Positions 417-64,000 of a DNA stretch of 64,000 nt are shown piece by piece. The stretch is from a virus. Made by a program: the position numbers and the translations under genes. The notes beneath the pieces are model-generated. The model saw only the letters and a program-made list of their open reading frames with translations, was not told the DNA's origin and did not search any database. Within the stretch, counting starts at the first letter, position 1. Each line of letters starts with the position of its first letter. The stretch spans positions 45,084-109,083 of IMG/VR virus record IMGVR_UViG_3300037264_003623. One strand, given 5' to 3'.

Positions 417-1606
417 AGACGTTCTACTCCAGGAAGTTCGCGAGGTTCATGGGTTCCATCCTGGCGAAGGCCACATGGGACCCGGATCTCCACCCGAGGA
501 GCGAGGGCGGGAAGTTCTCCAGGACCGAGGGAGTCTCTGAGGAGAGGCGGGTCGCGGAGAGGCTCATGGGGACCTCGGCGGATCAGCTTGAGGCGGAGGC
601 ACGGGAGACCGAGCGGGAGGCTTCCGCGCTGAGGGCGATGGGGAAGGGCGAGAAGGCCGCGATGGCCGACGCCGTGGCGAGGGACCTGATGGAGAGGGCG
701 AAACTGGCGAGGGAGCCGGTCAGGGTGTTCAGGCCGGGATCGGAGCCGAGGAGGCCCGCCCCGCCGATAGATCCCACGAGGCATCCGCAGGAGTCCGTGA
801 GGGGGAGGGCAGAGACGATGAGAAAAGCCTCGGGGAAGCCTGAGGCTTTCATCATGAACACGCGCAGGGTCATGGGGGGCAAGGGAGAGTGCCACCGAGT
901 CCTCTTCGACGACGGGACCAGGGCCGCCTACAAGCCGACGGCGGGGTCCGTCCTTGTGCAGATGGAGAAGCAGGGCCGGGGTGAGGAGATCACGATCGAC
1001 CCGAAGATCCCGGAATCGAAGCGCGAACGGGCCGTCTTCGATCTCAGCGCGATGGCCGGGTTCGACGTGGTGCCCCCGGTCGAGCTCGTGGACTACGATG
1101 GGGTGGGGTCCCCCGGGGGCGGGCACGCTATGGCATGGGTGGACGGGCAGGAGGCCATTGACATCGAGGACCAGTACTACAAGGACATCTCCGCGAACCA
1201 TCCCGACCTTCACCGGATTGCGGCGCTCGACTTCATCACGGGCAATGTAGACCGGCACCAGGGGAACTTCATGAGGGGGAAGGACGGGCGCTGGTACGCG
1301 ATCGACAATGGCCTCTGCTTCACCAGGGACATGGAGCTCGGGATGTCGTGGTCCGATGTCATGCGGAAGCTCATGATGCACGTCACGCCGCCGGAGGTGC
1401 GGGCGGAGATCGCCTCGATCGACAAGGACGCTATGGGCGGAATCATGAAGGAGGCGGGCTTCGACGCCGTGGACATCAAGGCCGCGCAGACGAGGCTGGA
1501 TGTGCTCAAGGCCTTGGGCGGGTGGGGGACGGAGGGGCAAATGTACGGGGCGGCCGAGGACGCCTACTTCCAGGCGGGTGGGCGCAGGCGGCCAGGGAGG
1601 GAATGA
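413..1606 (+). CDS. HipA/PI3-PI4K-like kinase with N-terminal LAK|ATWDPDLHPRSEGGKF tag
   Basis: ATGA overlap start; motifs AAYKP, RERAVFDL, VVPPVEL, LDFITGNVDRHQGN, YAIDNGLCF. Confidence 0.85.
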   Translation: MKTFYSRKFARFMGSILAKATWDPDLHPRSEGGKFSRTEGVSEERRVAERLMGTSADQLEAEARETEREASALRAMGKGEKAAMADAVARDLMERAKLAREPVRVFRPGSEPRRPAPPIDPTRHPQESVRGRAETMRKASGKPEAFIMNTRRVMGGKGECHRVLFDDGTRAAYKPTAGSVLVQMEKQGRGEEITIDPKIPESKRERAVFDLSAMAGFDVVPPVELVDYDGVGSPGGGHAMAWVDGQEAIDIEDQYYKDISANHPDLHRIAALDFITGNVDRHQGNFMRGKDGRWYAIDNGLCFTRDMELGMSWSDVMRKLMMHVTPPEVRAEIASIDKDAMGGIMKEAGFDAVDIKAAQTRLDVLKALGGWGTEGQMYGAAEDAYFQAGGRRRPGRE

Positions 1607-1923
1607 TCGTGCTCATTGGGGTAAGATGGGTGAGGGACGTGGACACCGGGCGGGATGTGTCGTTCGAGTACAGGCTGGACCCGAGGACCGGCAAGGCTGT
1701 CCAGGTCGCGGGGCCCGCGAGGGCGAACGACGAGGTGATCCTCTCCCCGTGGGATGGGGTGATGGGCCCCGAGATCGCCAAGTATCACGGGATGGATTTC
1801 AAGCCGGTTCCGAAGGGCGGGAGGAGGCTGACCCCGGACGACGGGGTTGACTTCCTTCTCGCCGTTCTCGTCAAGTACGCGAGGAACACCGGCTACGGCA
1901 GGGTCGAGCCGATCAGCCGATAG
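1603..1923 (+). CDS. small kinase-associated protein (putative immunity)
   Basis: RBS GGAGG, ATGA overlap with the kinase; LTPDDGVDFLLAVL..GYGRVEP. Confidence 0.75.
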   Translation: MIVLIGVRWVRDVDTGRDVSFEYRLDPRTGKAVQVAGPARANDEVILSPWDGVMGPEIAKYHGMDFKPVPKGGRRLTPDDGVDFLLAVLVKYARNTGYGRVEPISR

Positions 1924-1932
1924 GAGGATCAG

Positions 1933-3258
1933 ATGGAGACGCCGTCGAGCAGGGCCACGAGCAATCTGATTTCCAAGTCCCTGGAGACCGTCCAGGAGAC
2001 GCCGGGCCAGGTGTCCTCGAAGGAGATGCAGGACCTCTCCGCGATGATCCTGAAGGCGATGGACGACCCCGCCTTCGTCGAGACGGTCTGCCCGAGCGGC
2101 GGCTGCCCCGAGCTCCGCGGCCTCCTCCTGGAGGTGGTCGAGCGGGCCAAGGAGGAGGACGACTCCCCCGAGGTCAAGGCGTGCGTCTCGAAGAAGATCC
2201 CGATCCTCATCGAAGAGGGATATCCGAGAGCCCAAAGTGTCGCGATCGCGTTCTCGGTTTGCCGCAAGGACCCGTCCGTCGCCGACAAGGCGGTGAAGGT
2301 CGAGGGGACGCCCCGCTACATGACCGAGGCGGAGCTCCGCGCCATGAAGCCGAAGAAGCCGGAGACCGACACGGACACGGAGATCGAGTCCGCGATCGGG
2401 TGCGATCTCGACGCGCTCAACAGGACGACTTCCGTCCTGATTTCCAAGGCCGGGACCTCTGATGGCGCGAAGCTGGGGTGGGAGACCCGTAGGGGCGGAG
2501 CGCCCACTGATGAACCCAAGGCTGGGATGCCCTCCAGGCAGGAGTGGGATGGGTTCCAATCGAACGCTGATGCGGTATTCGATGTCAGCAGGGGCGCGGT
2601 CAAAGAGGTTGAACGGATCGAGGAGAGGGCCATAGAAGCGGAAGAGGAGGGTAGATCCCGCCTACATCCGTTCGGCGTGAAAGAGCCGACGACGCCGAAG
2701 GGCGTGGAGCAGGCTCTGAACAAGCTGGCGGATGTCGCGCCGAAGGCCGCTGACCTCGCGGCGAGACTGAAAGGCGTCCCTGGGGTGGACGAGGGGAAGA
2801 GGAAGGCCGCTGAGGACAAGATGCGGGGATGGAAAGGTGGGGTGCCCCGTGAGGAGATGCAGGATTTCAACGACATCGTGTCCGACATCTACACGATGGT
2901 AGACAGCGCCAGGGCGGACCATGACCCGAAGTACATGGAGGGGTCCGAGCCCGTGACGCGGCCTTCCGTGGGCAAGGAGCTCGTTCTGAACCTGGGCGTG
3001 CAGAAGCGGTTCTTGTCCCTGCAAGACCTTGAGGGATTCAAGCCGACGAAACCGGAGGACGTCCGCCCGCCACGGGAGAGCACCAGGCACGAGGGCGAGC
3101 CGGAAGACTCGGGGCTTCGTCGCCTCATCATGCCGGGATGGGCCCGAAAGGGCGGCCAGGTTGCGCCTCCCGGTGACGTCCCGAAGGATAGGATCAGGGG
3201 CGATGGCTTGACCGAGATGCTCATGCCGAGCAGGAAAGAGGACGAGCCCAAGGAATAG
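1933..3258 (+). CDS. putative head-cargo protein with ISK|AGTSDGAKLGWETRR tag
   Basis: RBS AGGAGG; CVSKKIPILIEEGYPRAQSVAIAFSVC head-protein-like segment; tag at 2446-2493. Confidence 0.7.
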   Translation: METPSSRATSNLISKSLETVQETPGQVSSKEMQDLSAMILKAMDDPAFVETVCPSGGCPELRGLLLEVVERAKEEDDSPEVKACVSKKIPILIEEGYPRAQSVAIAFSVCRKDPSVADKAVKVEGTPRYMTEAELRAMKPKKPETDTDTEIESAIGCDLDALNRTTSVLISKAGTSDGAKLGWETRRGGAPTDEPKAGMPSRQEWDGFQSNADAVFDVSRGAVKEVERIEERAIEAEEEGRSRLHPFGVKEPTTPKGVEQALNKLADVAPKAADLAARLKGVPGVDEGKRKAAEDKMRGWKGGVPREEMQDFNDIVSDIYTMVDSARADHDPKYMEGSEPVTRPSVGKELVLNLGVQKRFLSLQDLEGFKPTKPEDVRPPRESTRHEGEPEDSGLRRLIMPGWARKGGQVAPPGDVPKDRIRGDGLTEMLMPSRKEDEPKE

Positions 3259-3273
3259 CGCACACGATGTGCG
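3259..3273. promoter_or_regulatory. 15-bp palindrome CGCACACnGTGTGCG, copy 1 (one mismatch)
   Basis: CGCACACGATGTGCG directly after the TAG of the previous gene. Confidence 0.55.
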
Positions 3274-3292
3274 GAAACCGGAGGAATACCCC

Positions 3293-3976
3293 GTGAAAGA
3301 GCGCAAGGACAAGGACCTGGGCTCGATTTTCAACGCCAAGTCCCTCCTCGACGGGCAGGGGACCCCACAGCGGGACACCGCCCAGAGCAGGAAGGTCGCC
3401 CTGGACTTCGCCGGGATGCTCGCGAAGGATGGCACGAGCGAGGGTGCGAAGAAGGGCTGGGAAACTCGACGCGGCGCGGCAGCCCTGTCCGAGGGCCCCA
3501 AGGAGTTCAGAGACTTCATGGTAGGAGCCATCGCCCAGCGCGACACCCCTGATGCCAAGGCGACGAAGGAGATGGCGGAGAATCTCAAGGACAGTGATGT
3601 TCCCCTGAAGGATGCTTTTACCGCCGCTCAGAAACGGGTTGACCAGGCCGACGCCCTCGCCGGGGAGACCCTCAAGCGGTTCGGCTCCGCCCTTTCCCAG
3701 TATCACGTCGACAACATCAATCGCGAGCGGGAGACGATCAAGCGGGCCATGGATGTCGCCGACAGGCATGTCCGGGAGAACAGCCGGGGGTATGCCGCCG
3801 ACGCCATCAGCAACGCCGTCGAGGGCGCGGACCTCATGTCGATCTGGGCATCTTCCGCGGTCGGAGAAGTCTGGAAAAAGCAGACCCGGGAGAGGGGGGT
3901 GGGGAAGTCCGGCACTTCCGAGGGGGTCCCGAAGACCCTCAAGGGGTCGTTCCTGACCGAAGGCGACACACAATAG
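3293..3976 (+). CDS. putative head-cargo protein with LAK|DGTSEGAKKGWETRR tag and a degenerate second tag
   Basis: GGAGG before GTG 3293; tags at 3425-3472 and 3905-3934. Confidence 0.7.
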   Translation: MKERKDKDLGSIFNAKSLLDGQGTPQRDTAQSRKVALDFAGMLAKDGTSEGAKKGWETRRGAAALSEGPKEFRDFMVGAIAQRDTPDAKATKEMAENLKDSDVPLKDAFTAAQKRVDQADALAGETLKRFGSALSQYHVDNINRERETIKRAMDVADRHVRENSRGYAADAISNAVEGADLMSIWASSAVGEVWKKQTRERGVGKSGTSEGVPKTLKGSFLTEGDTQ

Positions 3977-4001
3977 GTTGCGTTTCCCATCCGGTTCCTT
4001 C

Positions 4002-4029
4002 TTGGCGAATACGCTAAAGGGTGTATAAT
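4002..4029 (+). promoter_or_regulatory. sigma70-type promoter, probably leaderless transcript
   Basis: TTGGCG-16-TATAAT, ATG 6 nt downstream at 4036. Confidence 0.55.
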
Positions 4030-4035
4030 AGGATC

Positions 4036-5598
4036 ATGGAAGTGGGCGCGATCTATGACGTCCAGAAGGAAGGCACCTCCGAGGGTGCCTACCGCGGGTG
4101 GGAGACTAGGAGAGACGGCCCGAGGGCCGCCCCTTTCGTCGAAGCGCGGAGGAAGATTGGGAGCATGGTGGAGGAGGCCAACGAGGAGTTCAAGAGGGAG
4201 GTTGCTCTTCACCTGAAGGGTATCCCGAGCGACTACGCGGGGATGACACGCAGGGACAGGGAGAACAGAGCCGAAGGCCTGAGGCTCGTTCGGGATGCAG
4301 TCGAGAGACTGAGGGGGGCCGAGGTCGCGGAGGCGGACAGGGGTACGCTCGCCAGGATGATCGACTACGCGGAGCGGGAAGCCCCCATCATCAGCGAGCG
4401 CGACAAGGGGGACCGGAGGTGGCACGAGGAGTTCGACGCCTTCCTCGCCGAAGCCGAGGAGGTCGCGTCCAGGGCGAAGGAGCCCGAGGGAATGGAAAAG
4501 GGCGAGGTCGTCGTCTGGGAGCCGAGCAGGCATCCCCGGGGGGAGGGGGGCCGGTTCGCCCAGGCCGAGGCCAGGGATCCCGAGGAGAGGCGGAGGCTGG
4601 TCGAGTCCGCGGCGTCCGAGGCCGCCAGGCGGGTTATCGACAGCATGGGCCGAGACGCGAACAGGGTGATCTACGATACGGTGAGCGAGTTCGGCCTGTC
4701 CGGCAACGACGCGGCCGAGGCGTTCCAGATGGCCGACCGGAGGCTGCGGAAGGAGCGGGAGCTGGATGTGCTCCGCAAGGCCACTGGGGACCTGCTCTCG
4801 AAGGTCGAGTTCGAGGAGGACGAGCACCCGAGGGACCCCGCAGGCAGGTTCGCCTCCAGGGGAGAAGGGGTCGCGCCGAGGGCCGATGCCGTCTCGAAGG
4901 AGGAGATCGACAGGGTGTTCGACGGCAGGGCGAAGAACCCGAGCACGCCCGATGAGCAGAGCCGCCTGCACCAGGAGATCGAGGCCTCGGCGGACAGGGC
5001 GAGTCGGATGTCGCAGGAGGACCACATCTCCGGGGTGCCCGAGAGGATGACCAAGGTATCCGAGAGGGCGGAGGCCGTCGTGATGTCCCTCGGCAGGAGG
5101 ATCATGGAGGAGGGCGCAGCTAACTGGAAGGAGTTCGTCTTCGCGGTGGAGAACGGGAGCGGGGACGTGGTGGGGATGAGGGAGGGCGACAAGGAATCAG
5201 CGTCGTGCGTCGGGATCTACGGGGGGATGGACAGGGATAGGGGATACACGTTCGTCCACAACCATCCCACAAGCAACTCCTTCTCGGACGTGGACGTGAT
5301 CATATTCACTAGGATCCCCCAGTTTACGAGGGCGGTGGTGGTCAGCGGGATGTGGACGTACATTCTGGAGAAGCCGCCGGGGTGGAACTTCAGGAAGGTT
5401 TGGGGCGTGGACGATGCCAGGGCGGAGTACCTCCGCCAGAGCGACGTGCTGACGCCCAAGTACAAGCCCCCCGCCAACCCGGACGGGACGAGGGACGACG
5501 CCAGGGACAGGGTCGCGTGGCGGGAGCAGGGCCATGAGGTGATATCCAACCTGGCGAAGCTCTACGGGCTGTCCTACAGGAGGGAGAAGAGGGCATGA
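4036..5598 (+). CDS. polyprotein-like cargo with three tags and a C-terminal JAB/MPN (RadC-like) domain
   Basis: VQK|EGTSEGAYRGWETRR, MEK|GEVVVWEPSRHPRGEGGRF, LSK|VEFEEDEHPRDPAGRF; then E..HNHPTSNSFSDVD metal motif. Confidence 0.75.
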   Translation: MEVGAIYDVQKEGTSEGAYRGWETRRDGPRAAPFVEARRKIGSMVEEANEEFKREVALHLKGIPSDYAGMTRRDRENRAEGLRLVRDAVERLRGAEVAEADRGTLARMIDYAEREAPIISERDKGDRRWHEEFDAFLAEAEEVASRAKEPEGMEKGEVVVWEPSRHPRGEGGRFAQAEARDPEERRRLVESAASEAARRVIDSMGRDANRVIYDTVSEFGLSGNDAAEAFQMADRRLRKERELDVLRKATGDLLSKVEFEEDEHPRDPAGRFASRGEGVAPRADAVSKEEIDRVFDGRAKNPSTPDEQSRLHQEIEASADRASRMSQEDHISGVPERMTKVSERAEAVVMSLGRRIMEEGAANWKEFVFAVENGSGDVVGMREGDKESASCVGIYGGMDRDRGYTFVHNHPTSNSFSDVDVIIFTRIPQFTRAVVVSGMWTYILEKPPGWNFRKVWGVDDARAEYLRQSDVLTPKYKPPANPDGTRDDARDRVAWREQGHEVISNLAKLYGLSYRREKRA

Positions 5599-6704
5599 AG
5601 GATCCGAAGGTGCCGATCACCGAGTGGGACATCGACGACCGCGGCAACGTGCCTCCCTACGGGAACGCCGTCGCGAAGGAGGGCACTTCTGAAGGGGCGA
5701 AGCTGGGATGGGAAACGAGGCGGGAGGGCGGACAGGCGGAGGAGAAGAAGCCGGACGCCTCATCCTTCGAGACGCCCCCCGAGAATTGGCAGCAAAGTCT
5801 GCCGTACCAGCATCGGCTGAACTTGGGTGCATGGACGGAGTGGCTCACCAACCTGAGGATGTCCCATGTCTACCGCCAGGGGGGCGAGGCCAAGCCCTAC
5901 CGGCCAGAGTTCGCCGACGTCGCGGCTCGGCGCGAGGTCGGGCGGTGGCTCGATCGCAACGACGATAAGATGATCTACCACATCTCGCGGAAGGTGGACA
6001 TCTCGCATGGGCCGAGGGACGAGAAGATCGGCGAGGCGGTCGGGCTGGTTCAGGAGATCGTTCGCATGGCCCAGGCCGAGGCGCGGAGGGAGGCCGAGAC
6101 GCAGGCCAAGAAGAACCCTCTGTCCGGCGTCCTGTTCGGGAAGGCCAGGGTCGTGGGCGGATTCCCACTCACGCAGGAGGACGCGCTCGCGAAGGAAGGC
6201 ACGTCCGAAGGCGCCAAGAAAGGGTGGGAGACCAGGCGCGAGGGCGGCGGGGCGCTATCCGAAGAGGAGCGCAAGAGGGCCATTCGATCCCTTGAGGTGC
6301 GGGGCGCGGCGGACAGGGGCGACGTGTCCGTGAAGATCGTCCCCCTTCTTACCGGGGAGGGGTTCGGGGTGGAGACCACGGTGGCTGGCGACAGGAGGAA
6401 CCCGAGGGAGCCCGCCATGACGATGGAGGAGGCACGCAGGTTCGCCCTGGAGCAGCTCCAGAGCCCCCGCCCGACCCAGACCCCCGAGATGAAGCCGAAG
6501 CCCGAGGCGGAGGAGAAGAAGCCCTCTCCGACGCCCGTGAGGCCCTACAGGAACCCCGGAGACTTGGCCGCCGACTACAAGCGGCAAGGTATCCCGAAGC
6601 AACGTGCCTGGGATCAGTTCATCATCGACACTGTCCTCTCCCCGAAGTTCCGGTCGGAGCAGGTGGACGCGAGGGAGTTCTTCCAGGCCTACGATAGGGC
6701 GTAG
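5595..6704 (+). CDS. polyprotein-like cargo with two GTSEGAK.GWETRR tags
   Basis: Tags at 5676-5723 and 6192-6239; ATGA overlap. Confidence 0.7.
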   Translation: MKDPKVPITEWDIDDRGNVPPYGNAVAKEGTSEGAKLGWETRREGGQAEEKKPDASSFETPPENWQQSLPYQHRLNLGAWTEWLTNLRMSHVYRQGGEAKPYRPEFADVAARREVGRWLDRNDDKMIYHISRKVDISHGPRDEKIGEAVGLVQEIVRMAQAEARREAETQAKKNPLSGVLFGKARVVGGFPLTQEDALAKEGTSEGAKKGWETRREGGGALSEEERKRAIRSLEVRGAADRGDVSVKIVPLLTGEGFGVETTVAGDRRNPREPAMTMEEARRFALEQLQSPRPTQTPEMKPKPEAEEKKPSPTPVRPYRNPGDLAADYKRQGIPKQRAWDQFIIDTVLSPKFRSEQVDAREFFQAYDRA

Positions 6705-7756: not shown

Positions 7757-7762
7757 AGAGAC

Positions 7763-46152: not shown

Positions 46153-47298
46153 ATGTCCACCGAGAAGACTCCGTGGGAAGGACGCCTCGGGATCGAGGTG
46201 ATGGGCAAGATGCACGGATGCTGCGTCGGGACCATCGCCAAGTGGCGGCCCCAGATGATCGGGGTCAAGAAGGAGTGCTCCTACTGCGGCTCCTTCCTGA
46301 AGACGATCCGGGCGGGCGAGGTACTCTCCCCCGTCTTCACGGGCGGCATGCTGGAGCACCACCGGGACGTCGAAGAGCCCCCGATGGTCATCGGCGGGCT
46401 CTACTTCGCCTCGTACAAGTTCCCGACCGAGGAGGCCGTGAAGGCGTGGATGGGCGAGCGGGAGATCCCGGGGGACTTCGTCGGCAAGATCGACGACCAT
46501 GCCTTCTACCACCCCATCGACGACTCCCTCATGGTGAACTCCGTCCGGCTGATCTGGGTCGCCCCCGGCGTCGTGGGAGAGATCGGGGTGTCCGAGAAGC
46601 AGGTCGCCACGGGTGGGGGCCAGGCGTCCATGTCGTCCCCCGGAATGACGACCACATCCATCGCGTCCGGGGGTGATCTCTTCCCGGCCCAGGGCCCGGC
46701 GCAGGCTGCCGCCGAAGTCCCTGGCGTGCCGTCCGTGATCCAGGGGATCACCGACGTGCAGGACGGGCACCAGCACGAGTTCTTCCTGACGCCTACCCCC
46801 GAGGTCGGCGGGTGGAGGGTCAAGTCGTTCACGTCCTACAACAGCGGGCACGCGCACATGGTGGAGTGCTCCATCGGGGCGGGCGGAGAGATCGATACCA
46901 GGACGGCCCCGGACCAGACCCCCGTGGGCGGGCACGCGCACGCGCACCGGATCGCGTGGCCGGTCGGCAAGTCCTTCGGCGAGACGAAGCCCTACGAGAG
47001 GCAGTTCCGGGTCACCTCCGGCGACGTGGTCCTGCTCCGCCGGGCGGCGGGGATGGTGGACAACTTCTGCAAGAACATCCAGAATGGCAGGAGTGTCCTC
47101 GACTCCGCGAGCGACTTCCAGGCCCAGCTCTCCAGCGCGATCGAGAGGGCCAGGGGGCAGGTCACGGGCATGGAGGGGGTGGTCGCCATCAAGACCGCGG
47201 ACATCGAGCGCCTCCAGGGGTGCGCGAAGTTCATCGACGACATGGGCGACGGCCTCGCCATAAACATCGGGATGGAGAAGGGGAAGGAGCAACCATGA
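46153..47298 (+). CDS. head-associated protein with HxH metal-binding repeats
   Basis: KFPTEEAVKAWM; DGHQH, SGHAH, GHAHAH. Confidence 0.65.
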   Translation: MSTEKTPWEGRLGIEVMGKMHGCCVGTIAKWRPQMIGVKKECSYCGSFLKTIRAGEVLSPVFTGGMLEHHRDVEEPPMVIGGLYFASYKFPTEEAVKAWMGEREIPGDFVGKIDDHAFYHPIDDSLMVNSVRLIWVAPGVVGEIGVSEKQVATGGGQASMSSPGMTTTSIASGGDLFPAQGPAQAAAEVPGVPSVIQGITDVQDGHQHEFFLTPTPEVGGWRVKSFTSYNSGHAHMVECSIGAGGEIDTRTAPDQTPVGGHAHAHRIAWPVGKSFGETKPYERQFRVTSGDVVLLRRAAGMVDNFCKNIQNGRSVLDSASDFQAQLSSAIERARGQVTGMEGVVAIKTADIERLQGCAKFIDDMGDGLAINIGMEKGKEQP

Positions 47299-48515
47299 AC
47301 GAGGGACGCGACGTATGGAGCGGGGGCAACCTCTCCGAGAAGGGTGTCCAGGTCAACAAGTCGCTCCGCAGGGGCCTCGACATCCACAAGGGCATGGAGC
47401 TCTTCCCGAAGAAGGCGAAGCCCTCCGAGATCGATCAGACCCTCGAAGATCTCCAGGATGCCCAGGATTACATCGAGAAGGAGAGGAGACTCCGCAAGGT
47501 CGGAGGCCCTTTCGTCAATAGCCCCCTCGTCGAGAAGGAAGGTACCTCCGAGGGGGCGAAGCGCGGATGGGAGACCCGTCGAGAGGGTGGGGCCGGAGAT
47601 GAGGAGAAACCGACGGGTTCCTCCAAGGCCGAGCGTATGGGCATCCAGAACCCCGACTCCTCCGGCATGGGATCCCACCCGGACCACGACAAGCATCCCC
47701 TTCACGAGACCCTCGCCAACGCGGGGCTTGAGTATTCCCACTCGGTGGTGGTCAACCACGGGTCGGGGGACGACCGCGTCCATCACGCCTACAAGATCCC
47801 CGGAACCGACCGCCAGGTCGGGGTACACCAGACGGCGAAGGGCGACTGGATGTGGGAGTCGAGCAAGGCCGGTTCGGGCCGCATGAAGACGGGGGGAGAC
47901 GCGGCCTCCCTGGCCTCCCACCTCAAGAGGGCGGAGAAGGGCCTCGATGGCGACGAGTCGGTGCGGATCTCCAAGGACCAGGTCGAGAAGATCCTGAAGG
48001 ACGCAGGGTGGGACAAGCTCCCGCTCCCCGACAAGGCGAAGGAGGCACTGGAGGATCTGGTCAGCAACGGGGCGAAGCCGGTGTCCGAGTACACCGGGAA
48101 GATCATGGTGGAGCATGGGATTCCCGAGGAGCCACCGGCGTTCGTCAGGCCGAAGAAGCTGGAAGTCGGGGACATGGTGATCCCGATCGACTGGAGGTCC
48201 GTCGGGGCGTTCGGGGGAAAGTTCGACATGCCGATGGTGCCCCAGGCCGCCAAGGTGAAGAAGATCTACATGGGCCCCGCGAGGGTCTCGAAGAACGCCT
48301 ATCCGTTCGGAAGGACGCCTGCTGATCTCTCCAAGGTCGAGATGGTCACCGAGGATCGGATGTGGGGACTCGACCTGGAGGAGGGGAAGGTCAAGAAGGA
48401 CGACGACACTTTCCCCTCCCCTGTTTCTACCCGGGACACTACAATGGTACTTCGGATGGAGGCGCTGGCCTCGCCAGAAGGGGAGATCAACCCCGGCGCG
48501 GCATCGCCTCGTTGA
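47295..48515 (+). CDS. putative head-cargo protein with VEK|EGTSEGAKRGWETRR tag
   Basis: RBS AAGGAG; tag at 47535-47582. Confidence 0.72.
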   Translation: MNEGRDVWSGGNLSEKGVQVNKSLRRGLDIHKGMELFPKKAKPSEIDQTLEDLQDAQDYIEKERRLRKVGGPFVNSPLVEKEGTSEGAKRGWETRREGGAGDEEKPTGSSKAERMGIQNPDSSGMGSHPDHDKHPLHETLANAGLEYSHSVVVNHGSGDDRVHHAYKIPGTDRQVGVHQTAKGDWMWESSKAGSGRMKTGGDAASLASHLKRAEKGLDGDESVRISKDQVEKILKDAGWDKLPLPDKAKEALEDLVSNGAKPVSEYTGKIMVEHGIPEEPPAFVRPKKLEVGDMVIPIDWRSVGAFGGKFDMPMVPQAAKVKKIYMGPARVSKNAYPFGRTPADLSKVEMVTEDRMWGLDLEEGKVKKDDDTFPSPVSTRDTTMVLRMEALASPEGEINPGAASPR

Positions 48516-48516: not shown

Positions 48517-48531
48517 CGCACACGGTGTGCG
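48517..48531. promoter_or_regulatory. 15-bp palindrome CGCACACGGTGTGCG, copy 4
   Basis: Perfect palindrome 1 nt after TGA 48515. Confidence 0.6.
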
Positions 48532-48548
48532 GTTTTTCGGAGGAGCCC

Positions 48549-48968
48549 ATGAACCTTGGAAACTACGCGAGATCGGGGGCTGGCAAGGTGTCCAAGTCCC
48601 AGCGGGCGCGGGAGGGCGACGTCAACAAGCAGTTCGACCCGACCAAGCAGCCCCGCGTGCCGTCGAACATCCCCGGGGCGGGGCCGCAGGGCGTCCCCCC
48701 GGCGGATCGCGACGAGATGGCCGCCTTCGCCAGGACCGGGAACGCGGAGATGATCCCGCAGGTGGTCGCGGCTCAGACGGGCCTCGCCTCCCACGGGCCC
48801 GCGCTGGCCTCCTCGCTCGCCCGGATGGGCGGGCAGGTGCGCCTGTCGCCGGGGCAGTTCCGCGCCTGGGCGAACCCGCAGGACCCGGCCCCGAAGCCCT
48901 CGACGCAGGTCACGAGCGATGCGTCGAAGCCGGGTTCGCTGCCGCCTCCGGCCCCCCCGGTGTACTAG
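48549..48968 (+). CDS. putative head-cargo protein with VNK|QFDPTKQPRVP tag variant
   Basis: RBS GGAGG; Pro-rich. Confidence 0.62.
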   Translation: MNLGNYARSGAGKVSKSQRAREGDVNKQFDPTKQPRVPSNIPGAGPQGVPPADRDEMAAFARTGNAEMIPQVVAAQTGLASHGPALASSLARMGGQVRLSPGQFRAWANPQDPAPKPSTQVTSDASKPGSLPPPAPPVY

Positions 48969-49000: not shown

Positions 49001-49588
49001 ATGGCCCAGAGCCATGTCTACAAGGTGATCCCCGCGTCAAAGGCGGCGGAGGACGAGGCCGCCCTGAACGCTTTCGCGAAGGAAGGCTGGAGTCTCCTCG
49101 GGGGCACCGGCGGGAACCTCTACCTCGTGAAGGCGTTGGCCCCCCATGAGACGGGGGGAAGGGTCGACCCTGATGTCAAGGTCGCCAAGGTTTGTGCGAA
49201 CTGCGGCTCCTTCGAGACCGTGAAGGACACGGACGGGGTGGGTCGATGCCCCGAATGGAATCTCCTGGTGGAGGCATCCGGAGGGTGCGGGAAGTTCAAG
49301 ACGAGGGGCATGACCGAGAAGTCCATCCCGGACGAGGTCAGCGCATGGCACTGGACGCCGAGGACGGAGATTGGCGAGAAGCGGATCGAGGCGATCACGA
49401 CCCAGGGGTCGGGGGTCGCCTCCCCGGAGCACAAGCACCGGGTCATGGTGATCCGCGCCAAGGATGGCTCCGTCGTGAGGGGAAAGACCGACGTTGTGAA
49501 TGGACACGACCACCTCATCAAGTTTATGGGGATGGTCGAGGAGGCGGACGGGCACGGTCACACTTTCCTGCTTCCGCAGGAGTCATGA
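49001..49588 (+). CDS. multi-module protein (DUF4177-like start, CxxC, HxH repeats)
   Basis: YKVI..LNAFAKEGW; CANC; EHKH, NGHDH, DGHGH. Confidence 0.6.
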   Translation: MAQSHVYKVIPASKAAEDEAALNAFAKEGWSLLGGTGGNLYLVKALAPHETGGRVDPDVKVAKVCANCGSFETVKDTDGVGRCPEWNLLVEASGGCGKFKTRGMTEKSIPDEVSAWHWTPRTEIGEKRIEAITTQGSGVASPEHKHRVMVIRAKDGSVVRGKTDVVNGHDHLIKFMGMVEEADGHGHTFLLPQES

Positions 49589-49995: not shown

Positions 49996-50898
49996 ATGCA
50001 GACCCCCGAGTCTGCCAGGATGCGGCTCTTCGCGGGGGGCCTGCGGCCTGAGAACCAGGCTGTAGGCTCCCCGCTTGGTATTGGCCTTCTGTCCAAGATG
50101 AAGTCGTCCGCTGGAGGGCGTCAGTGGCCCCCGGCAGCCCCCAAGGAGGCCGACTTCACCGTGGTGGACATGATGTGCCAAGCTCTTCTTGGGGGCCAGG
50201 AGACCCTGGTCGAGCCCATCGGGGTGGGAATCCACAGGCCGTACAGGGTCGAGTTCCTCGACGGGATGGACTCCGGCCCGATGACCACGAGGCGGGCCGC
50301 CCTCAAGACGATCTACTGCCAGTACGAGAACAAGCGGTACTGCGCCTCTGTGGACTTGGATGTGACGGGGCCGGAGCGGGAGATCCTCTCCTTCGAGCTG
50401 GACCGCATGTTCGGGTTCGACCTGGTGCCCCCGACCGTGGGGAGAGAGATCGAGAAGGTCGGGTTTGGGAGCGTCCAGGCGTGGGTGGACTGTCCGACGG
50501 CGTGGCAGTGGATCGAGCGGGGCTACGACTACCGCGAGGACAAGACGAACCCCTGGCTCCACCGGCTTGCTGCCTTCGACTTCATCCGGGGTGAGATCGA
50601 TCGACACTCGAACAATTTCATCATGGACGACCAGCGGCGGGTCTACGCCATTGACAATGGGTACTCCATCGTGAAGGGTGACGACCGGACCTGGATGAGG
50701 TCGAGCGCGGGGAAGCACCTGGTGGGCACGCCCATCCATCCCGGAGTCATGGTGCAGATCCAGGCGATCGACGAGGGAAAGGCGTTCGACCTCGTGGACC
50801 GTGGCCGCTTCAAGAGCGGCGAGGCCGACGGGGTGGTCAAGCGGATCAGGGAGATGAAGGGTCTGACGGAATGGCGGAAGCTCGGCGATCTCTGGTAG
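49996..50898 (+). CDS. HipA/PI3-PI4K-like kinase
   Basis: REILSFELD, LVPPTV, GSVQAWV, FDFIRGEIDRHSNN, YAIDNGYS. Confidence 0.85.
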   Translation: MQTPESARMRLFAGGLRPENQAVGSPLGIGLLSKMKSSAGGRQWPPAAPKEADFTVVDMMCQALLGGQETLVEPIGVGIHRPYRVEFLDGMDSGPMTTRRAALKTIYCQYENKRYCASVDLDVTGPEREILSFELDRMFGFDLVPPTVGREIEKVGFGSVQAWVDCPTAWQWIERGYDYREDKTNPWLHRLAAFDFIRGEIDRHSNNFIMDDQRRVYAIDNGYSIVKGDDRTWMRSSAGKHLVGTPIHPGVMVQIQAIDEGKAFDLVDRGRFKSGEADGVVKRIREMKGLTEWRKLGDLW

Positions 50899-57811: not shown

Positions 57812-58165
57812 ATGGGAGCTTCCGAAGGAACCTACCAGCCGGAACGCGGCTACAAGAATGGGGCGGGGGATTTCATTCTCGAAGCCGGGGCGCGATATCA
57901 CCCTTTCCGCCTCACCACGGTCCTCTGGCAGCGCAAGAACGTCAACGCCGTGGACATCCATCTGGAGATGCTCGACGGCGACAAGGTGTTCACCATCGAC
58001 GAGTATCTCACCTGCACGGACAAGCACTATTCCTGGCCGAACGAGGATAGCCCATGTCCTCTCGCTCTCGTGCCTTCGCAGAGGGTTAGGCTCCGAGTGA
58101 CCGGGGCCAATGCGACGGAGGAGCAGTCGGCGGTGGTCGTATGGGCGGAGCTGGGCGCGGTGTAG
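57812..58165 (+). CDS. putative virion protein
   Basis: RBS GGAG. Confidence 0.6.
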   Translation: MGASEGTYQPERGYKNGAGDFILEAGARYHPFRLTTVLWQRKNVNAVDIHLEMLDGDKVFTIDEYLTCTDKHYSWPNEDSPCPLALVPSQRVRLRVTGANATEEQSAVVVWAELGAV

Positions 58166-58184
58166 ACCCGGCTTGGGGGATTGC

Positions 58185-61100
58185 ATGGACGGCGACGGGA
58201 TCAGAGAAACGCTCGGGGAGGCGCTCATAGGCAAGGATGTTGGCCCCGATGCAATGGAGAACCTAGTGAAAGTTCTCCTGGTGGGCGGGGATGTCGAGGG
58301 GCAGAGTCCTCGGAAGAAGAAGAACAACGAGGAGCCGGAAGCGCCGCCCGCCACGAAACAGCTCGACGATTTTCAACAGATCGTCGGGGAGTTCGTCCCA
58401 CCCGCCTTCAACCCCGGTATATGGGCACAGACGCTCAAGGTCAACACTCGCCTCGCCAGGTGTATCCGGTCGTTCGCGAGGAACACCGTCGGCCTTGGGT
58501 GGAGCATCGAACCCATCCACCCGGTCACGGAGGAAATTCCGAAGCCGATCCGCGATCTCATCACGAAGCAGACCGAGGCGCTCCGGGAGTTCTTCAACCA
58601 CCCGAACCCGACGATACCGATGACCGAGATCTTCTACCTGGAGAAGGTGGATGAGGAGGCCACGGGCAACGGGTACATCGAGGTGGTGCGGAACAACTCG
58701 GGGAAGATCTCGAAGATGTTCCACGTCCCTTCCATCACAGTCCGGAGGAGGATCATCCGGGAGGAAGGGAAACCGGTGGTGTCGGGGTTCGTGCAGATCC
58801 GTGGGAGCCAGAAGAGATACTTCAAGGACTTTGGCGACAAGCGGGTGATGGATGCCTTCAATGGGAAGTACCATGACGGGAAGGAGCCGCTTTCGGCCGA
58901 TCATCGCGCCACCGAGATCCTCCATTTCCTGGTCTACGACCCGGGGAGCTCCTACTACGGGGCCCCGAGGTACATCCCGGCGGCGACCGCCATCGCGGGC
59001 AACCGTCAGGCCGCCATCCGCAACGTGAACTTCTTCGAGAATGACGCCGTCCCGCGCATGGCGCTCCTCATCTCCGGTGGGAAGCTCACCGGGGACTCCG
59101 TGCAGCAGATCGAGGACTTCGTTCGGGCCAAGGGCCGCGGCGTCGAGAACGCGCACAGGGTGATGATCGTCCAGGTGGAGCCGATCAAGGTCGGGTTCCA
59201 GCAGCAGAACAAGGTCATGGTGGACCTGAAGCCGCTGACCGTGGGCGTGACTGAGGACGCCAGCTTCTCCCAGTATCGGGAGGCGAACGACGAGGAGGTC
59301 CGCGAGATATTCGGGCTGGGCCAGATCTTCTTCAAGGCGGAGGGCGCGAACCGGGCGAACGCGCAGGTCTGTCTCGCGGGGCATGTCTCTATCCCCCTCC
59401 TCGATGGACGGGTTATCACGATGAGGGATCTCACCCGGGAATTCGCGGACGGGAGGAGGTTCGCCGTCTATTCCCTGGACCATGCGGGGAATGTCGTCTG
59501 CGGATGGGCTCACCATCCGAGGAAGACCAAAACCGACCAGACCTATGATGTCATTCTCGACTCGGGGCAGGCCGTCAGGGCCAACGCGAGTCATCCGTTC
59601 ATGCTCCGGGATGGGACGTATTGCCCCGTGGGCAACCTCAGGCCAGGGATGAGCCTGATGCCCTGGTATGTCCGGATGGGGTTCAAGAACGCCTTGAGCG
59701 TCGATGCGAGCACTTACGGATACTGGGAGATCTACAACCCTGCATCGGACAGATGGGATCTTGTGCATCGGAGGATCCTTGCGGGCGAGGGCGTGGACCT
59801 TCGCGGGATGTCGGTCCATCATCGAGACGGGAACCCGTTGAACAACGACTTGTCGAATCTGGACGCGCTAACGTGCTCGGAACATATCCGTCTGCACAAG
59901 GGCGGGAGGCGTGGTGAGTACTTCGGTTCGGATCACCCAGGGTTCAAGCACTTCGATTTCGATGAGGTGGTGAGGGTCGCGGCCACCTGCGGGGGTCGTC
60001 CGACGCTCCTGAGGCGACTGGAGATCGGCTCTTCGGCGCTCTACCGGGTCCTCAAGGAGCATGGACTGACCTATGAGGAGTTCCGATGGAAGCACATGGG
60101 GCCGAAGAATCGCCCTCCAGGGGGGAGGTCTCACACAAGGTTCCGGAAGGACGCGAGTTTTGAGCATCTCGCGGAGAAGGCACCGGGTTGCCGGTATCGG
60201 AGGGATTTGATCTCGGCCACGGGGTACTCCGCGAACCTCATCCTCCGTCTCATGAGGGAGCACGGGTACGACTACGCGAGATTCCGTGCGGAGTTCATGG
60301 GCATGAAAGCCCCCGTGATGAATCATCGTGTGGTGGCCGTGGTCCCCGCCGGGATCGAGGATGTGTTCGACCTCACGGTGGACCGGTATGAGAACTTCGC
60401 CGTGGCGGCGGGGGTGTTCGTCCACAATTCTCGCGAGATCACCAACGAGCAGGAGCTTGAGCCCGATCGCCTCTCGAAGGAGTACGTCATCAACCAGACC
60501 ATCGTGGAGGACATCCTCTTCCAGCAGATGGGCGTGACAGGCGATGAGTCTCCCGAGGAGGTCGAGGAGTTCCACAAGAACATCCACGTCCGGTTTCGGT
60601 TCGCCAGGCTTACGCTGACCGATCCGCTCGACGAGGCGCGGATGAACCAGATGTACGCCTCGCTCGGGGCAATCACCCCGAACGAACTCCGCGAGAGCCT
60701 CGGCAAGCCGCCGTTCCCGAAGGACTACTACTTCGCCGACAAGCCTTTGGCGATCGCGATGGCCGAGCTCACGGCAGGGCTCGCGCTTGCCATCGCCCAG
60801 AAGGACGAGGAGAAGATGCCGCAGGTCGCCGCCCCCGGTGCGCCTCCAGGGGTGGGGGTTCCAGGGGAAGAAGGCGTACCGCCGGAAGGGGTGCCTGCCG
60901 AGGAGGAACCTGAGGAAGAGGAAGCCCCGCCTGACGAGATGAATGGGCGGGAGCCGAAGGGCGTCGCTGGGATGCCTCCCATCCCTGGGGCACCGGGGGC
61001 GACACCGATCCCGGGGCTTCAGGTCATGCCGAAACCCGGTGGAGTCAAGAAGCCTTTGAGGAAACCCAGGCCCCCGAAACCAACACAGGGTATTGCATCT

Positions 61101-61250
61101 CTCCACGGGGTGCCGGTATCATCGAGGAAGACGATGGTTCCGAACCCACAGGCGTTCGGGATTCTTTCGGAGCTCATGAGCGACATCAGGAAGTTCGCCC
61201 TCGCGGGGGTGAGCTTTGCAAAGGGGGATGGAGATGGACAAGGTCGCTGA
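58185..61250 (+). CDS. portal protein with an intein
   Basis: DEEATGNGYIEVVRN, EILHF, YYGAP, FFENDAVP, ITPNELRE; upstream of protease and capsid. Confidence 0.9.
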   Translation: MDGDGIRETLGEALIGKDVGPDAMENLVKVLLVGGDVEGQSPRKKKNNEEPEAPPATKQLDDFQQIVGEFVPPAFNPGIWAQTLKVNTRLARCIRSFARNTVGLGWSIEPIHPVTEEIPKPIRDLITKQTEALREFFNHPNPTIPMTEIFYLEKVDEEATGNGYIEVVRNNSGKISKMFHVPSITVRRRIIREEGKPVVSGFVQIRGSQKRYFKDFGDKRVMDAFNGKYHDGKEPLSADHRATEILHFLVYDPGSSYYGAPRYIPAATAIAGNRQAAIRNVNFFENDAVPRMALLISGGKLTGDSVQQIEDFVRAKGRGVENAHRVMIVQVEPIKVGFQQQNKVMVDLKPLTVGVTEDASFSQYREANDEEVREIFGLGQIFFKAEGANRANAQVCLAGHVSIPLLDGRVITMRDLTREFADGRRFAVYSLDHAGNVVCGWAHHPRKTKTDQTYDVILDSGQAVRANASHPFMLRDGTYCPVGNLRPGMSLMPWYVRMGFKNALSVDASTYGYWEIYNPASDRWDLVHRRILAGEGVDLRGMSVHHRDGNPLNNDLSNLDALTCSEHIRLHKGGRRGEYFGSDHPGFKHFDFDEVVRVAATCGGRPTLLRRLEIGSSALYRVLKEHGLTYEEFRWKHMGPKNRPPGGRSHTRFRKDASFEHLAEKAPGCRYRRDLISATGYSANLILRLMREHGYDYARFRAEFMGMKAPVMNHRVVAVVPAGIEDVFDLTVDRYENFAVAAGVFVHNSREITNEQELEPDRLSKEYVINQTIVEDILFQQMGVTGDESPEEVEEFHKNIHVRFRFARLTLTDPLDEARMNQMYASLGAITPNELRESLGKPPFPKDYYFADKPLAIAMAELTAGLALAIAQKDEEKMPQVAAPGAPPGVGVPGEEGVPPEGVPAEEEPEEEEAPPDEMNGREPKGVAGMPPIPGAPGATPIPGLQVMPKPGGVKKPLRKPRPPKPTQGIASLHGVPVSSRKTMVPNPQAFGILSELMSDIRKFALAGVSFAKGDGDGQGR
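59370..60428 (+). mobile_element. intein in portal with HNH endonuclease
   Basis: V|CLAG..NASHPF..VHHRDGNPLNNDLSNL..FVHN|S. Confidence 0.9.
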
Positions 61251-62943
61251 TGTCAGCTCGGCCAACGACATCCTGTTCTCCTTCGACGCGGTGTGCGAGA
61301 AGGCGTGGCAGGACGAGAAGGGCAAGATGTTCGTTCGGGCCGTGGCCTCCGACGACCGCCTCGACCTCCAGCGCGACCGCATGAGCGCCAATGCCCTGAA
61401 GAAGATGGCCGACGCCGCCAAGAAGGGCGTCCCCTTCCTGGAAACCCACCGCTCCGTGTTCGAGTTCGGGAAGACCGTGGGCGGAGACGTGGTGGACTTC
61501 GAGGAGGGCGGGAAGAAGGTCCAGAAGTTCGTGGTGGACGTCGAGCTCGACGGTGACTTCCCTCAGGCGAGGAAGCTCTTCAAGGAGGTCGCCGGGAACA
61601 CCTGCAAGCGCCAGCTCTCGATCGGCGGGAAGCTGAACCTCAAGAACAAGGAGGCCGTCCACGTCGAGATGACTCCGACCGGCCTTGCTCGCACGATCAA
61701 CGACCTCGACCTCGATCACATCGCCTCAACCAGGGAGAGCCAGGCGGCCAATCCGCGCACCTCTTTCACCGAGGCGATTTCCAAGGCTCTCGACGATGCG
61801 GAAAAAGGGCTTGCAAAAGAAAAAGGGGATGGTCAGAATGTAACGCAGATGCAGTTCTCGCCTGAGATGCTGGCTGCGTTGAAGAAAGTGATCGAGATAG
61901 CGCAAGTTGGAGGGAAGGACATGAACAAGGCTCCGGAGACACCGGCCACTCCGGCGACGCCCGCCGAGACTCCCACGACTCCCACCGAAACGGCCCCCAC
62001 GACCGAGATCGCCTCGAAGGCTGTGGGAACGCCCCGCAACACCGAGACACCGAAGACCCCGGCGACCCGGCCGGAGCAGACGGCCCTCACGCCCGAGGCC
62101 CCCAAGTTCGGCCAGATCAAGGGCAAGGACGCCGCCTCCGCCTCCGACCTCGCCAACGACATCGCGATCCTGCTCGCCAAGAAGAAGCCCTTCCCCGGCG
62201 CGGCCACTCCCTTCGGGTCCGAGGATTCCAAGGACTCCGAGGACGAGATGACCGACGAGGAGAAGGCGGTCGTCGACTCCCTGTGGGCGACGCGCTTCGT
62301 GCTGGCGAAGCAGGCATCCGGCGCGGAGCTGGGCGCGGGCGAGAAGGCCAAGGCATCCGACATCGTGGGCGCGGGCCCCTACGCTCCGCGCTCCGGCGCG
62401 AAGGGTCTCGCCGCCGGTCCGTTCATCCCGGACAAGGCCCCGAAGGGCGACACGACGGACATGGGGACGAGCGCGGTCACCGACCACCGGAAGAACATCC
62501 AGGTGGGCGGCGAGATCAAGTCGACGGCCCCGACCGCCAAGGACGCTCTCGACCTGACCCTCCGGAACGCCAAGGAGGCCGACAGGCTCCCGCAGGGAGT
62601 CGACCTCGTCTCCTTCGGCAAGACCCTCGGCGAGGAGATCATCTCCAAGAGCGCTGAGATCACCAAGTCCCTCGTGATCGATGCCATCGAGAGGGTGGCC
62701 TCCGATAGCGTCAAGTCCGCCACCGAGATCCAGAAGTCGGTCGCGGGTCTCGGGGATGTGGTCAACGATTCCTCGAAGCGACTCGCCGCGATGGAGTCCC
62801 GGCTCGCCAGGGTGGAGAAGGCCGGGGGCGTGAGCCAGAGCGGACCGAAGGGCAAGGAGGACGCCGCTCCCGAGAGGGCTCGCGGTGGCGTGTGGGGAGG
62901 ACTCTTCAACCGGGCCGCCAAGGACGCGCTGGCCCAGTACTGA
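61228..62943 (+). CDS. prohead protease (HK97-like) fused to scaffold
   Basis: VASDDRLDLQRD, ETH, LSIGG, DHIA..AANP; low-complexity and coiled-coil C-terminus. Confidence 0.85.
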   Translation: MEMDKVADVSSANDILFSFDAVCEKAWQDEKGKMFVRAVASDDRLDLQRDRMSANALKKMADAAKKGVPFLETHRSVFEFGKTVGGDVVDFEEGGKKVQKFVVDVELDGDFPQARKLFKEVAGNTCKRQLSIGGKLNLKNKEAVHVEMTPTGLARTINDLDLDHIASTRESQAANPRTSFTEAISKALDDAEKGLAKEKGDGQNVTQMQFSPEMLAALKKVIEIAQVGGKDMNKAPETPATPATPAETPTTPTETAPTTEIASKAVGTPRNTETPKTPATRPEQTALTPEAPKFGQIKGKDAASASDLANDIAILLAKKKPFPGAATPFGSEDSKDSEDEMTDEEKAVVDSLWATRFVLAKQASGAELGAGEKAKASDIVGAGPYAPRSGAKGLAAGPFIPDKAPKGDTTDMGTSAVTDHRKNIQVGGEIKSTAPTAKDALDLTLRNAKEADRLPQGVDLVSFGKTLGEEIISKSAEITKSLVIDAIERVASDSVKSATEIQKSVAGLGDVVNDSSKRLAAMESRLARVEKAGGVSQSGPKGKEDAAPERARGGVWGGLFNRAAKDALAQY

Positions 62944-63004
62944 GAGTCCGAATCGGAGAGGTCGCCCCGTGCGGGGCATAAGTCGAGAGTAAAGAGGAGG
63001 ATTC

Positions 63005-64000
63005 ATGGAAACGGCCACTCGCGGAAGAGGGGTCGGCGGGGTCAACGAGGACATGATCGAGAAGACGATCACCACGGGCGACCTGCTGACCGGCGGACTG
63101 CTGAACCCGATCCAGCAGACGCAGTTCATCACCCTGGTCAAGAAGTTCTCGGTTCTCCTTCCCATCTCCCGGTTCATCCGCATGCCCCGCCCGCTCATGG
63201 ACGTGGACAAGCTGTGGATCGGCGAGCCGGTGACGGAGTCGGTGGACGAGGCGACGGACACGGGCAACCTGGCCCGCGCCAAGTTCCAGCGCATCGTTCT
63301 CCGCGCCCAGAAGGTGCGGAGCGCCTGGAACATCACCACCGAGGTGCTCCAGGGCAACATCGAACAGAACGAGTTCGAGCAGACCGTGATGAACACGATG
63401 ATCGAGAGGATCGCGACCGACCTCGAAGATCTCGGCATCAACGGCGACACCACCACGGTCGGCACCACGCCCCGCGACCGGCTGCTCCGCCGCCTCAACG
63501 GCTGGAACCAGTCGACCGAGGGAGCGCACATCCTCGACGTCAAGGGCTCCAGCATCCAGAAGGGCATCTTCTCCGAGATGAAGCGCCGGATGCCGAAGCA
63601 GTACAAGAACGACCCGGGCCTGCGTTGGCTGGTCGGCGACGCCATCGCGACCGACTGGGCCGACGTGGTCTCGGACCGCGGCACGATCCTCGGCGACGCG
63701 GCCCTCCAGGGAGCCGAGATGTCCCCGCTGGGCACGCCGATGATCCGCGTCCCTCTGATCCCGGACGACGCCCCGATCACCATCCTCCAGGCGACCCGTG
63801 CGGAGTTCCTGGGCTCGGAGTACGGGCCGTTCGTCATCACCGCCGCCAACGACACGCTCCTCCTCCAGGTGGGCGGGGCACCCGGCCCCGGTGTCACCGT
63901 GGTCCTGACCCACGGCACCCTGAACACGGTCGAGATCGCTCGGCAGATCAACGCCGCCCTCAAGGCCGCCATCGCCACCCTGACCCAGGACGTGGCTCGC
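63005..64000 (+). CDS. major capsid protein (HK97 fold, partial)
   Basis: RBS GAGGAGG; IEK|TITTGDLLTGGLLNP, NIE, DLEDLGINGDT, MPKQY; read by eye because it has no stop in the window. Confidence 0.9.
   Translation, partial: METATRGRGVGGVNEDMIEKTITTGDLLTGGLLNPIQQTQFITLVKKFSVLLPISRFIRMPRPLMDVDKLWIGEPVTESVDEATDTGNLARAKFQRIVLRAQKVRSAWNITTEVLQGNIEQNEFEQTVMNTMIERIATDLEDLGINGDTTTVGTTPRDRLLRRLNGWNQSTEGAHILDVKGSSIQKGIFSEMKRRMPKQYKNDPGLRWLVGDAIATDWADVVSDRGTILGDAALQGAEMSPLGTPMIRVPLIPDDAPITILQATRAEFLGSEYGPFVITAANDTLLLQVGGAPGPGVTVVLTHGTLNTVEIARQINAALKAAIATLTQDVAR

Follow-up and report, generated by a model that had tools for sequence, protein, structure and literature searches.

A hydrophobic-x-lysine motif as the predicted site of an HK97-family prohead protease in the capsid and tagged cargo proteins of an uncultured phage

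The stretch of DNA analysed here (the window) covers the final 64 kb of a viral contig of 109,083 bp and 63% GC (IMG/VR record IMGVR_UViG_3300037264_003623), and its modelled genes all lie on the + strand. A tripeptide composed of a hydrophobic residue, any residue and lysine ([ILVM]-x-K, hereafter phi-x-K) precedes peptide tags that recur in otherwise unrelated proteins of this phage, ends the short leader of its major capsid protein and marks the junction between protease and scaffold in its prohead protease gene. The explanation that we consider probable is that phi-x-K, cut after the lysine, is the recognition site of the phage's own HK97-family prohead serine protease, which would both trim the capsid and process a set of cargo proteins. 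The first-pass annotation of this DNA had assigned such cuts to the protease at 61228, and as a prediction this is now well supported, indirectly, by the fold and family of the protease, the offset of the capsid site relative to HK97, the conservation of the sites, the exchange of tags behind them and the lineage specificity of the motif.

Two real tag types, A and B, are found in the window. Type A has the sequence GTSEGAxxGWETRR and occurs in six full copies (starting at nucleotides 2452, 3431, 4072, 5682, 6198 and 47541) and one truncated copy (3911), with a lysine constantly two residues ahead of the first glycine. Type B reads [FW]xxxxHPRxxxG[KR]F or FNPFHDxxGRF and occurs in four copies in the window (at nucleotides ~479, 4531, 4825 and 45504), with a lysine 0-5 residues ahead of the aromatic anchor. 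Twelve tags had initially been listed as following [ILVM]-x-K. All 12 tripeptides are present at the positions given below (the 12th being V-N-K at 48621-48629), but the 12th supposed tag, QFDPTKQPRVP, does not fit type B and is not a true tag. Nonetheless, the V-N-K before it and a V-S-K eleven residues earlier are both kept as phi-x-K in 8/8 lineages examined. Upstream of the window, a 13th tag, of type B, lies at genome position 43398 after L-N-K, and a tag of a third type, C (GHFGHAGRPGAVGGS, genome ~41436), follows L-T-R, which has arginine in place of lysine. In this genome, [ILVM]-x-K precedes 13 of 14 tags and LTR the remaining one. The type A copies have 70% nucleotide identity and use different codons at 53% of their conserved residues, including switches between TCN and AGC and between CGN and AGR, and are maintained by selection on the peptide and not by recent copying.

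The tagged proteins and their close associates are as follows; a slash in sequences given below marks a predicted cut or the boundary before a tag.

413-1606, + strand: candidate cargo protein 1, with a PI3/PI4-kinase-like C-terminal domain (PF00454, E 1.1e-7); 19-residue leader MKTFYSRKFARFMGSILAK at 413-469, ending in L-A-K at 461-469, then type B tag at 470-517.
1933-3258, + strand: candidate cargo protein 2; 15-residue leader ends in I-S-K at 1969-1977; internal I-S-K at 2440-2448, then type A tag at 2449-2493.
3269-3976, + strand: candidate cargo protein 3; L-A-K at 3419-3427, then type A tag at 3428-3472; V-G-K at 3899-3907, then truncated type A tag.
4021-5598, + strand: candidate three-module cargo polyprotein; V-Q-K at 4060-4068 before tag A, M-E-K at 4492-4500 before tag B, L-S-K at 4795-4803 before tag B.
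5595-6704, + strand: candidate two-module cargo protein; V-A-K at 5670-5678 and L-A-K at 6186-6194, each before tag A.
45435-46142, + strand: candidate cargo protein; leader ends in V-E-K at 45495-45503, then type B tag FNPFHDEQGRF at 45504-45536.
47295-48515, + strand: conserved head-region protein; V-E-K at 47529-47537, then type A tag at 47538-47582.
48525-48968, + strand: small conserved protein with no true tag; V-S-K at 48588-48596 and V-N-K at 48621-48629, both positionally conserved.

Five or six of the candidate cargo proteins also share a leader of the form M-x-T-x-x-S-basic-basic-[FW]-[AG]...L-x-K, which is 19 residues long in three of them. Examples are MKTFYSRKFARFMGSILAK, MRTQDSKRFAGLLLGSLNK, MQTNRSQRWGKNISISLSK, MNTKESKVWG...IEK and METPSSR...ISK, and leaders of the same type are present in relatives (MRTDASKKFALDFRAALDK/..., MRTTLS..., MRTPES...). 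At the level of sequence, phi-x-K is common to the ends of cargo leaders, the end of the capsid leader and the protease-scaffold junction. Orthologues of the 45435 protein carry L-L-K or I-E-K in the place of its V-E-K. Only the position of one of the gene clusters, near the head genes (45.4-49 kb), hints at presence of the candidate cargo in the mature head and its ejection with the DNA.

Relatives indicate that the site can be separated from the tag. A capsid-based locus search returned 29 loci with 67-92% identity, of which eight long records were used. Orthologues of the 47295 protein conserve its N-terminal 80 residues and its C-terminal domain, and at the tag position they read LVEK followed by EGTSEGAKRGWETRR in the window (type A), AVEK followed by SIDLDKEGKFREELHPRRSGKF in G001 (type B; L043:15217-16653), SVEK followed by AGGSVDPARSEASRLAWEKRER in G019 (divergent A; ~36.9-38.3 kb, minus strand, L116) and IVEK followed by DFVGEDGMPGLGNAMGLGRF in G016 (B-like; L106:13898-14920). 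Four different tags therefore stand behind one constant V-E-K in four orthologues, and the tags appear to be interchangeable cassettes. Among relatives of the same capsid family, phi-x-K precedes 16/18 further tags and lysine 18/18.

The residue ahead of the tag also differs between lineages. A degenerate DNA scan of IMG/VR found the type A tag in 13 unrelated contigs, where 16 distinct contexts carry asparagine or histidine and no lysine, for example LANA/G, LPNM/G and AHY/G. Five contigs with such contexts were searched in full, and they hold no PF05065 capsid and no protease matching the profile of this family; these lineages (G006-G010) carry other head modules. A scan requiring lysine at that position recovered a low-GC lineage in which [IL]-x-K-Y precedes the type A tags. 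The capsid of this lineage begins MSDI[KR]K/A, its protease-scaffold junction is IQK or IKK, and its protease matches the profile of the window's family (E 1.9e-6) and PF04586 (E 9.5e-17). The residue before the tag thus tracks the type of head module and not the tag. The exact type A pattern was found in none of five long relatives, because of divergence of their tags or because the contig does not reach the cargo cluster, and a word-indexed search of the leader and tag regions against a set of 5.8 billion proteins returned two relatives and the query itself only.

In an unrelated 58-kb phage (G007, L083-L085, ~8.9-12.7 kb), four consecutive genes beside tail and baseplate genes each open with a conserved segment, [FY]RPGxLAxE[YF]xAWAxxxGxxxHY, and have a type A tag after it; this tag is therefore not confined to capsid-adjacent genes.

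The major capsid protein provides a site without any tag.

63005-63064, + strand: capsid leader of 20 residues, ending in I-E-K (63056-63064, residues 18-20).
63065-64000, + strand: predicted mature part of the major capsid protein (PF05065; phrog_1623, E 2.4e-56), cut by the contig end.

The leader ending IEK/TITT that had been noted in the first reading is present, and [ILV]-E-K is kept in 28/28 capsid relatives, where it is followed by [TSA]-I in every case (28/28). Ahead of NEE-x-phi-EK the sequence is variable, and the leaders have between 9 and 23 residues. The capsid of Streptomyces phage BoomerJR, with 36% identity, starts MSNDEMIEK/VIRT. Position 4 of PF05065 corresponds to residue 32 of the window's capsid and to about residue 115 of HK97 gp5, as interpolated from the reported match. 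HK97 gp5 is cut at K103/S104 (PMC10275583). The predicted K20/T21 and the HK97 K103/S104 both lie 11 residues upstream and therefore have the same PF05065 offset, by position. The stretches concerned are TITTGDLLTGG-LLNP in the window and SLGSDADSAGS-LIQP in HK97, whose site reads F-N-K/S.

In the head module, the protease gene has the portal gene on one side and the major capsid gene on the other, as is typical of the Peptidase_S78 (HK97 gp4) prohead serine protease. The gene order is portal (58110-61250), protease-scaffold fusion (61216-62943, 575 residues) and major capsid protein (from 63005). The fusion divides into three parts.

61228-61776, + strand: prohead serine protease domain with the assemblin/T4 gp21 fold, from a model; invariant His, Ser and His.
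61777-61785, + strand: protease-scaffold junction I-S-K; phi-x-K in 21/21 orthologues.
61786-62943, + strand: scaffold-like C-terminal region; phi-x-K at 61810, 62173, 62302, 62641, 62659, 62728 and 62812.

An AlphaFold (AF2) model of the N-terminal 199 residues, built from 18 orthologues (predicted local distance difference test score, pLDDT, 76), has T4 gp21 (5jbl) as its nearest structural match, ranked first by Foldseek and with a VIA-align Z of 12.4 and a root-mean-square deviation of 2.8 over 135 residues. Herpesvirus proteases come next in the fold search, with Z 6-8. His72, Ser129 and His162 are invariant in 18 protease sequences. Four of 18 orthologues match PF04586 Peptidase_S78, the HK97 gp4 family (best E 9.6e-6), and three match PF14550 XkdF. 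When the protease alignment was searched as a profile against PDB sequences, the only matches were to leucine-rich repeats, which we rejected as spurious.

Among 21 protease-scaffold orthologues, phi-x-K forms more conserved columns than any other phi-x-Z pattern, eight at >=50% (that is, in at least half of the sequences) and six at >=75%; the next best are glycine, with five at >=50%, and leucine, with four at >=75%. The junction site, AANPRTSFTEA-I-S-K/A, lies just past the protease core and is a phi-x-K in all 21 orthologues; BoomerJR has a junction at the same place, PANQLANVFSIQK/T. Within the scaffold, the sites at 62173, 62302 and 62812 are kept in 17-19 of the 21 orthologues. RFVLAK is present in 19/21 and AILLAK and RVEK/AGG in 17/21 each.

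The tripeptide is common, with 385 copies in the 26,826 residues of 121 modelled proteins (0.0144 per residue). Even so, the matches at the tag sites, which involve a fixed position for seven type A copies and a 6-residue window for five type B copies, are far beyond chance if copies are independent; under that assumption, the chance of phi-x-K at all five type B copies is ~4e-6. To correct for composition, the phi-x-K count of each protein was compared with its own shuffles. Ten tagged proteins contain 65 phi-x-K motifs where 48.9 are expected (1.33-fold, p 0.003), and the control patterns phi-K, phi-xx-K, phi-xxx-K, phi-x-R, phi-x-E and phi-x-D show no enrichment there. Portal, protease-scaffold and capsid together have 1.35 times the expected number (p 0.02), other virion-region proteins 0.78 times and the remaining 93 proteins 1.05 times.

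If the lysine sites are cut as we suppose, the protease, as the N-terminal domain of the 61228-62943 fusion, would act on exposed segments inside the procapsid. The capsid leader of 20 residues would be trimmed off, and the protease would be freed from the scaffold, which it would also fragment. The shared cargo leaders, 15-28 residues long and resembling capsid-targeting sequences, would also be removed, and the cargo polyproteins (about a dozen proteins) would be cut between modules, so that each module then begins with tag A, B or C. Since each module bears its own tag just past the cut, the tag is probably required during cleavage or afterwards. As a guess, tags might retain modules on DNA or on the capsid shell, play a role in ejection or dock the protease. 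The idea in the first-pass annotation that cargo is 'armed' when cleavage exposes the tag as a new N-terminus is one possibility among these.

Several observations weigh against this interpretation. The phage is uncultured and known from sequence alone, and every cut is a prediction. The protease of the window itself has no Pfam match at E <= 0.01 and no PHROG match, and hhalign of the capsid and protease alignments against single HK97 gp5 and gp4 sequences gave nothing, and the link to HK97 was made through the fold search and Pfam coordinates. The scaffold had been described as dense in the motif, but its 10 copies against 6.6 expected (p ~0.10) are not significant by count. Many phi-x-K motifs sit within folded domains, and such a pattern is also expected from an amphipathic helix. 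An invariant C-E-K/AW, whose lysine is residue 29, lies within the first beta-strand of the protease model; this lysine is probably structural, and conservation alone therefore does not mark a site. Finally, type A tags are preceded across lineages by hydrophobic-x-[K/N/H]-x, so a hydrophobic and a polar residue could be an intrinsic N-terminal extension of this tag.

This last observation leads to the most substantial alternative, although we regard it as unlikely: phi-x-K may remain uncut, as a lineage-specific N-terminal extension of tags and leaders that forms part of an epitope binding scaffold, capsid interior or DNA, with the capsid leader retained. The similar context of GTSEGA in unrelated phages and the suitability of phi-x-K for an amphipathic helix both agree with such an extension. 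It does not account for the occurrence of the motif where there is no tag, namely at the capsid leader, the protease-scaffold junction, the tag-less leaders and the 48525 protein, nor for a spacing to type B tags that varies from 0 to 5 residues. The swapping of tags behind a constant VEK and the exact coincidence of the capsid site with the HK97 cut position likewise favour a cut.

The cuts might instead be made by a different enzyme, such as a host lysine-specific protease, the 49001-49588 protein or the JAB/MPN module of the 4021-5598 protein, or be restricted to capsid and scaffold. We think this improbable. The 49001-49588 protein does match phrog_15223, annotated 'protease' (E 2.8e-8), the JAB metallo-motif is present in the 4021-5598 protein, and the cargo sites are tied to no particular enzyme by experiment. 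However, only the prohead protease fits by fold, family and genomic position, its relative in HK97 cuts after F-N-K (PMC10275583), and the motif at its own junction suggests autoprocessing, whereas JAB enzymes are isopeptidases. Coincidence combined with paralogy, in which copying of the tags took some neighbouring residues along and the tripeptide arose by chance in capsid and scaffold, is very improbable and already hard to hold. The abundance of the tripeptide, the non-significant scaffold count and the nature of the tags as paralogous repeats would suit it, but the motif is common to two unrelated tag types and is kept in relatives with a diverged or swapped tag, and the capsid tripeptide is invariant across the 28 relatives and is also present in BoomerJR, which has 36% identity. 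The 53% synonymous divergence between tag copies also speaks against recent copying.

Beyond cleavage by the prohead protease, we tentatively consider a broader reading that seems to us rather doubtful at present, in which the three tags (GTSEGAxxGW[ED]TR; [FY]NPxHDxxGRF or HPRxxxGRF; and GHxGRPGxxGGS) are near-universal, undescribed signals that mark head cargo at the level of the module, each becoming active as a new N-terminus after the resident prohead protease has made its cut directly ahead of it, with cut site and tag forming a portable cassette. If so, evolution of the cut site would be coupled to that of the head module, with the tag remaining universal and exchangeable, which would account for the shuffling of injected effector modules by phages across unrelated types of head.

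Searches of Pfam and PHROGs with the candidate cargo proteins returned almost nothing, and among the modules delimited by tags only JAB-like and kinase-like ones are recognisable. An intact motif of JAB/MPN type, E...HNHPTSNSFSDVD, is found in the last module of the 4021-5598 protein (5100-5598). PI3/PI4-kinase-like proteins (PF00454) form a set of three paralogues, encoded at 413-1606, at 49996-50898 and just upstream of the window at genome 43320-45161. Two of the three have a leader, a lysine site and a type B tag; the third has a related MQTPES leader and orthologues in all relatives. The gene at 3269-3976 stops 22 residues past its truncated type A tag (VGK/SGTSEGVPKTLKGSFLTEGDTQ, then the stop codon), and relative P0002 has an internal module junction, RGSFLTEGEVGK/EGTSEGA. 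The arrangement at 3899-3976 and 4021-4113 suggests that a polyprotein was split, or underwent recombination, at a tag.

Other features of the head region and genome include the portal.

58110-61250, + strand: portal protein (PF04860), interrupted by an intein; likely start at Met26.

Its N-terminal region contains I-G-K (58227-58235) and L-V-K (58263-58271), and the intein, at residues ~429-773, has an HNH endonuclease domain (PF14890, E 5.5e-11; PF13392, E 3.2e-6). Two conserved head-region proteins, at 46153-47298 and 49001-49588, contain repeated His-rich motifs (DGHQHEF, GHAHMVE and GGHAHAHRI; NGHDHLIKF and DGHGHTF). These proteins have a weak YmaF match, in addition to the phrog_15223 match of the latter. 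An open reading frame of 1798 residues at 39683-45079 has a weak match to the terminase large subunit (phrog_9), Hint/intein domains, a LAGLIDADG domain and a C-terminal REase_MTES_1575/DUF559 nuclease, features that suggest a terminase gene with inteins and a nuclease fusion.

The capsid gene reaches the contig end at residue 332 of ~466 (capsids of relatives have 450-467 residues), and the contig start (genome 1-200) encodes the C-terminus of another protein. A circular contig with the capsid continuing at the start was rejected, as the C-terminal 134 residues of relatives' capsids are not there. Since the contig ends inside one gene and begins with a different one, the genome must exceed 109 kb, and it may include more tagged genes.

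Should these cuts prove real, a code of three residues would allow the capsid-loaded proteins and module cuts of an uncultured phage to be read from its sequence, and the predicted cargo would include three lipid-kinase-like proteins and a JAB-type enzyme. The capsid-targeting principle of T4 would be extended to the far more widespread HK97/S78 protease family, and a head-module-specific site combined with a universal tag would provide a rule for predicting injected effector repertoires. A cassette of leader, site and tag might also suggest itself for loading foreign proteins into the HK97-type heads of laboratory phages. Literature searches for the tag strings found no paper, and searches for the specificity of T5 pb11 and for proteomics of the Streptomyces relatives found nothing usable. 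The tags occur in many unrelated phages and are not in the literature searched, and they merit separate study.

Compared with known systems, the one described here is a lysine-specific, HK97-family variant of the T4 capsid-targeting/gp21 system, joined to widespread tags that are missing from the literature searched. In T4, the P1 residue is glutamate and the site is (L/I)-x-E. The site proposed here resembles it in having a hydrophobic P3, any P2 and a charged P1, but P1 is lysine, and the protease belongs to S78 (HK97-like) and is fused to the scaffold, unlike the S77 protease of T4. The T4 capsid-targeting sequence (CTS) is a propeptide of 10-20 residues that gp21 removes from IPI-III and Alt (PMC7411985), and unrelated packaged T4 proteins share this N-terminal propeptide, which ends in the motif used to trim capsid and scaffold (PMC7411985, PMC3012670). 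The present phage similarly has shared leaders on unrelated proteins, a motif in common with capsid and scaffold sites and a protease with the gp21 fold (Z 12.4). Unlike in T4, many of its sites are internal and would split polyproteins into modules that begin with one of three tags, which T4 proteins do not carry, and its cuts are predictions from sequence.

With HK97, the phage has in common protease orthologues that match PF04586, a capsid that matches PF05065 and a predicted cut at the same profile offset. The scaffolding domain of HK97, 103 residues long, is part of its capsid protein and is cut away; in the present phage it is the protease that carries the scaffold, and the capsid leader has 20 residues. 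We know of no tagged cargo proteins in HK97. The prohead protease of SPN3US and phiKZ (gp245/gp175) cuts many head and ejection proteins at A-x-E, the portal and its own polypeptide among them (PMC7411985). That system resembles the present one in having many head proteins with one short motif, and differs in the motif, the protease lineage, the genome size and the lack of shared tags after the cut.

Other systems load proteins into heads or shells of related type. In phage P1, an N-terminal signal directs DarB, a large anti-defence protein, into an HK97-like head, and no consensus leader or cut motif was found for the Dar proteins (PMC9024508); here, by contrast, leader and motif are explicit and repeated. 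Polyvalent phage proteins are described by Iyer et al. 2017 as multi-module proteins with JAB-like and other enzymatic modules that are predicted to be packaged in heads and delivered with the DNA, and their processing is ascribed there to built-in metallopeptidase domains (PMC5512222). Term searches of that paper returned no such tags and no prohead-protease cut code between modules. By analogy, the cargo-loading peptides of encapsulins, in which a short terminal peptide docks inside an HK97-fold shell, suggest one role that the tags could have.

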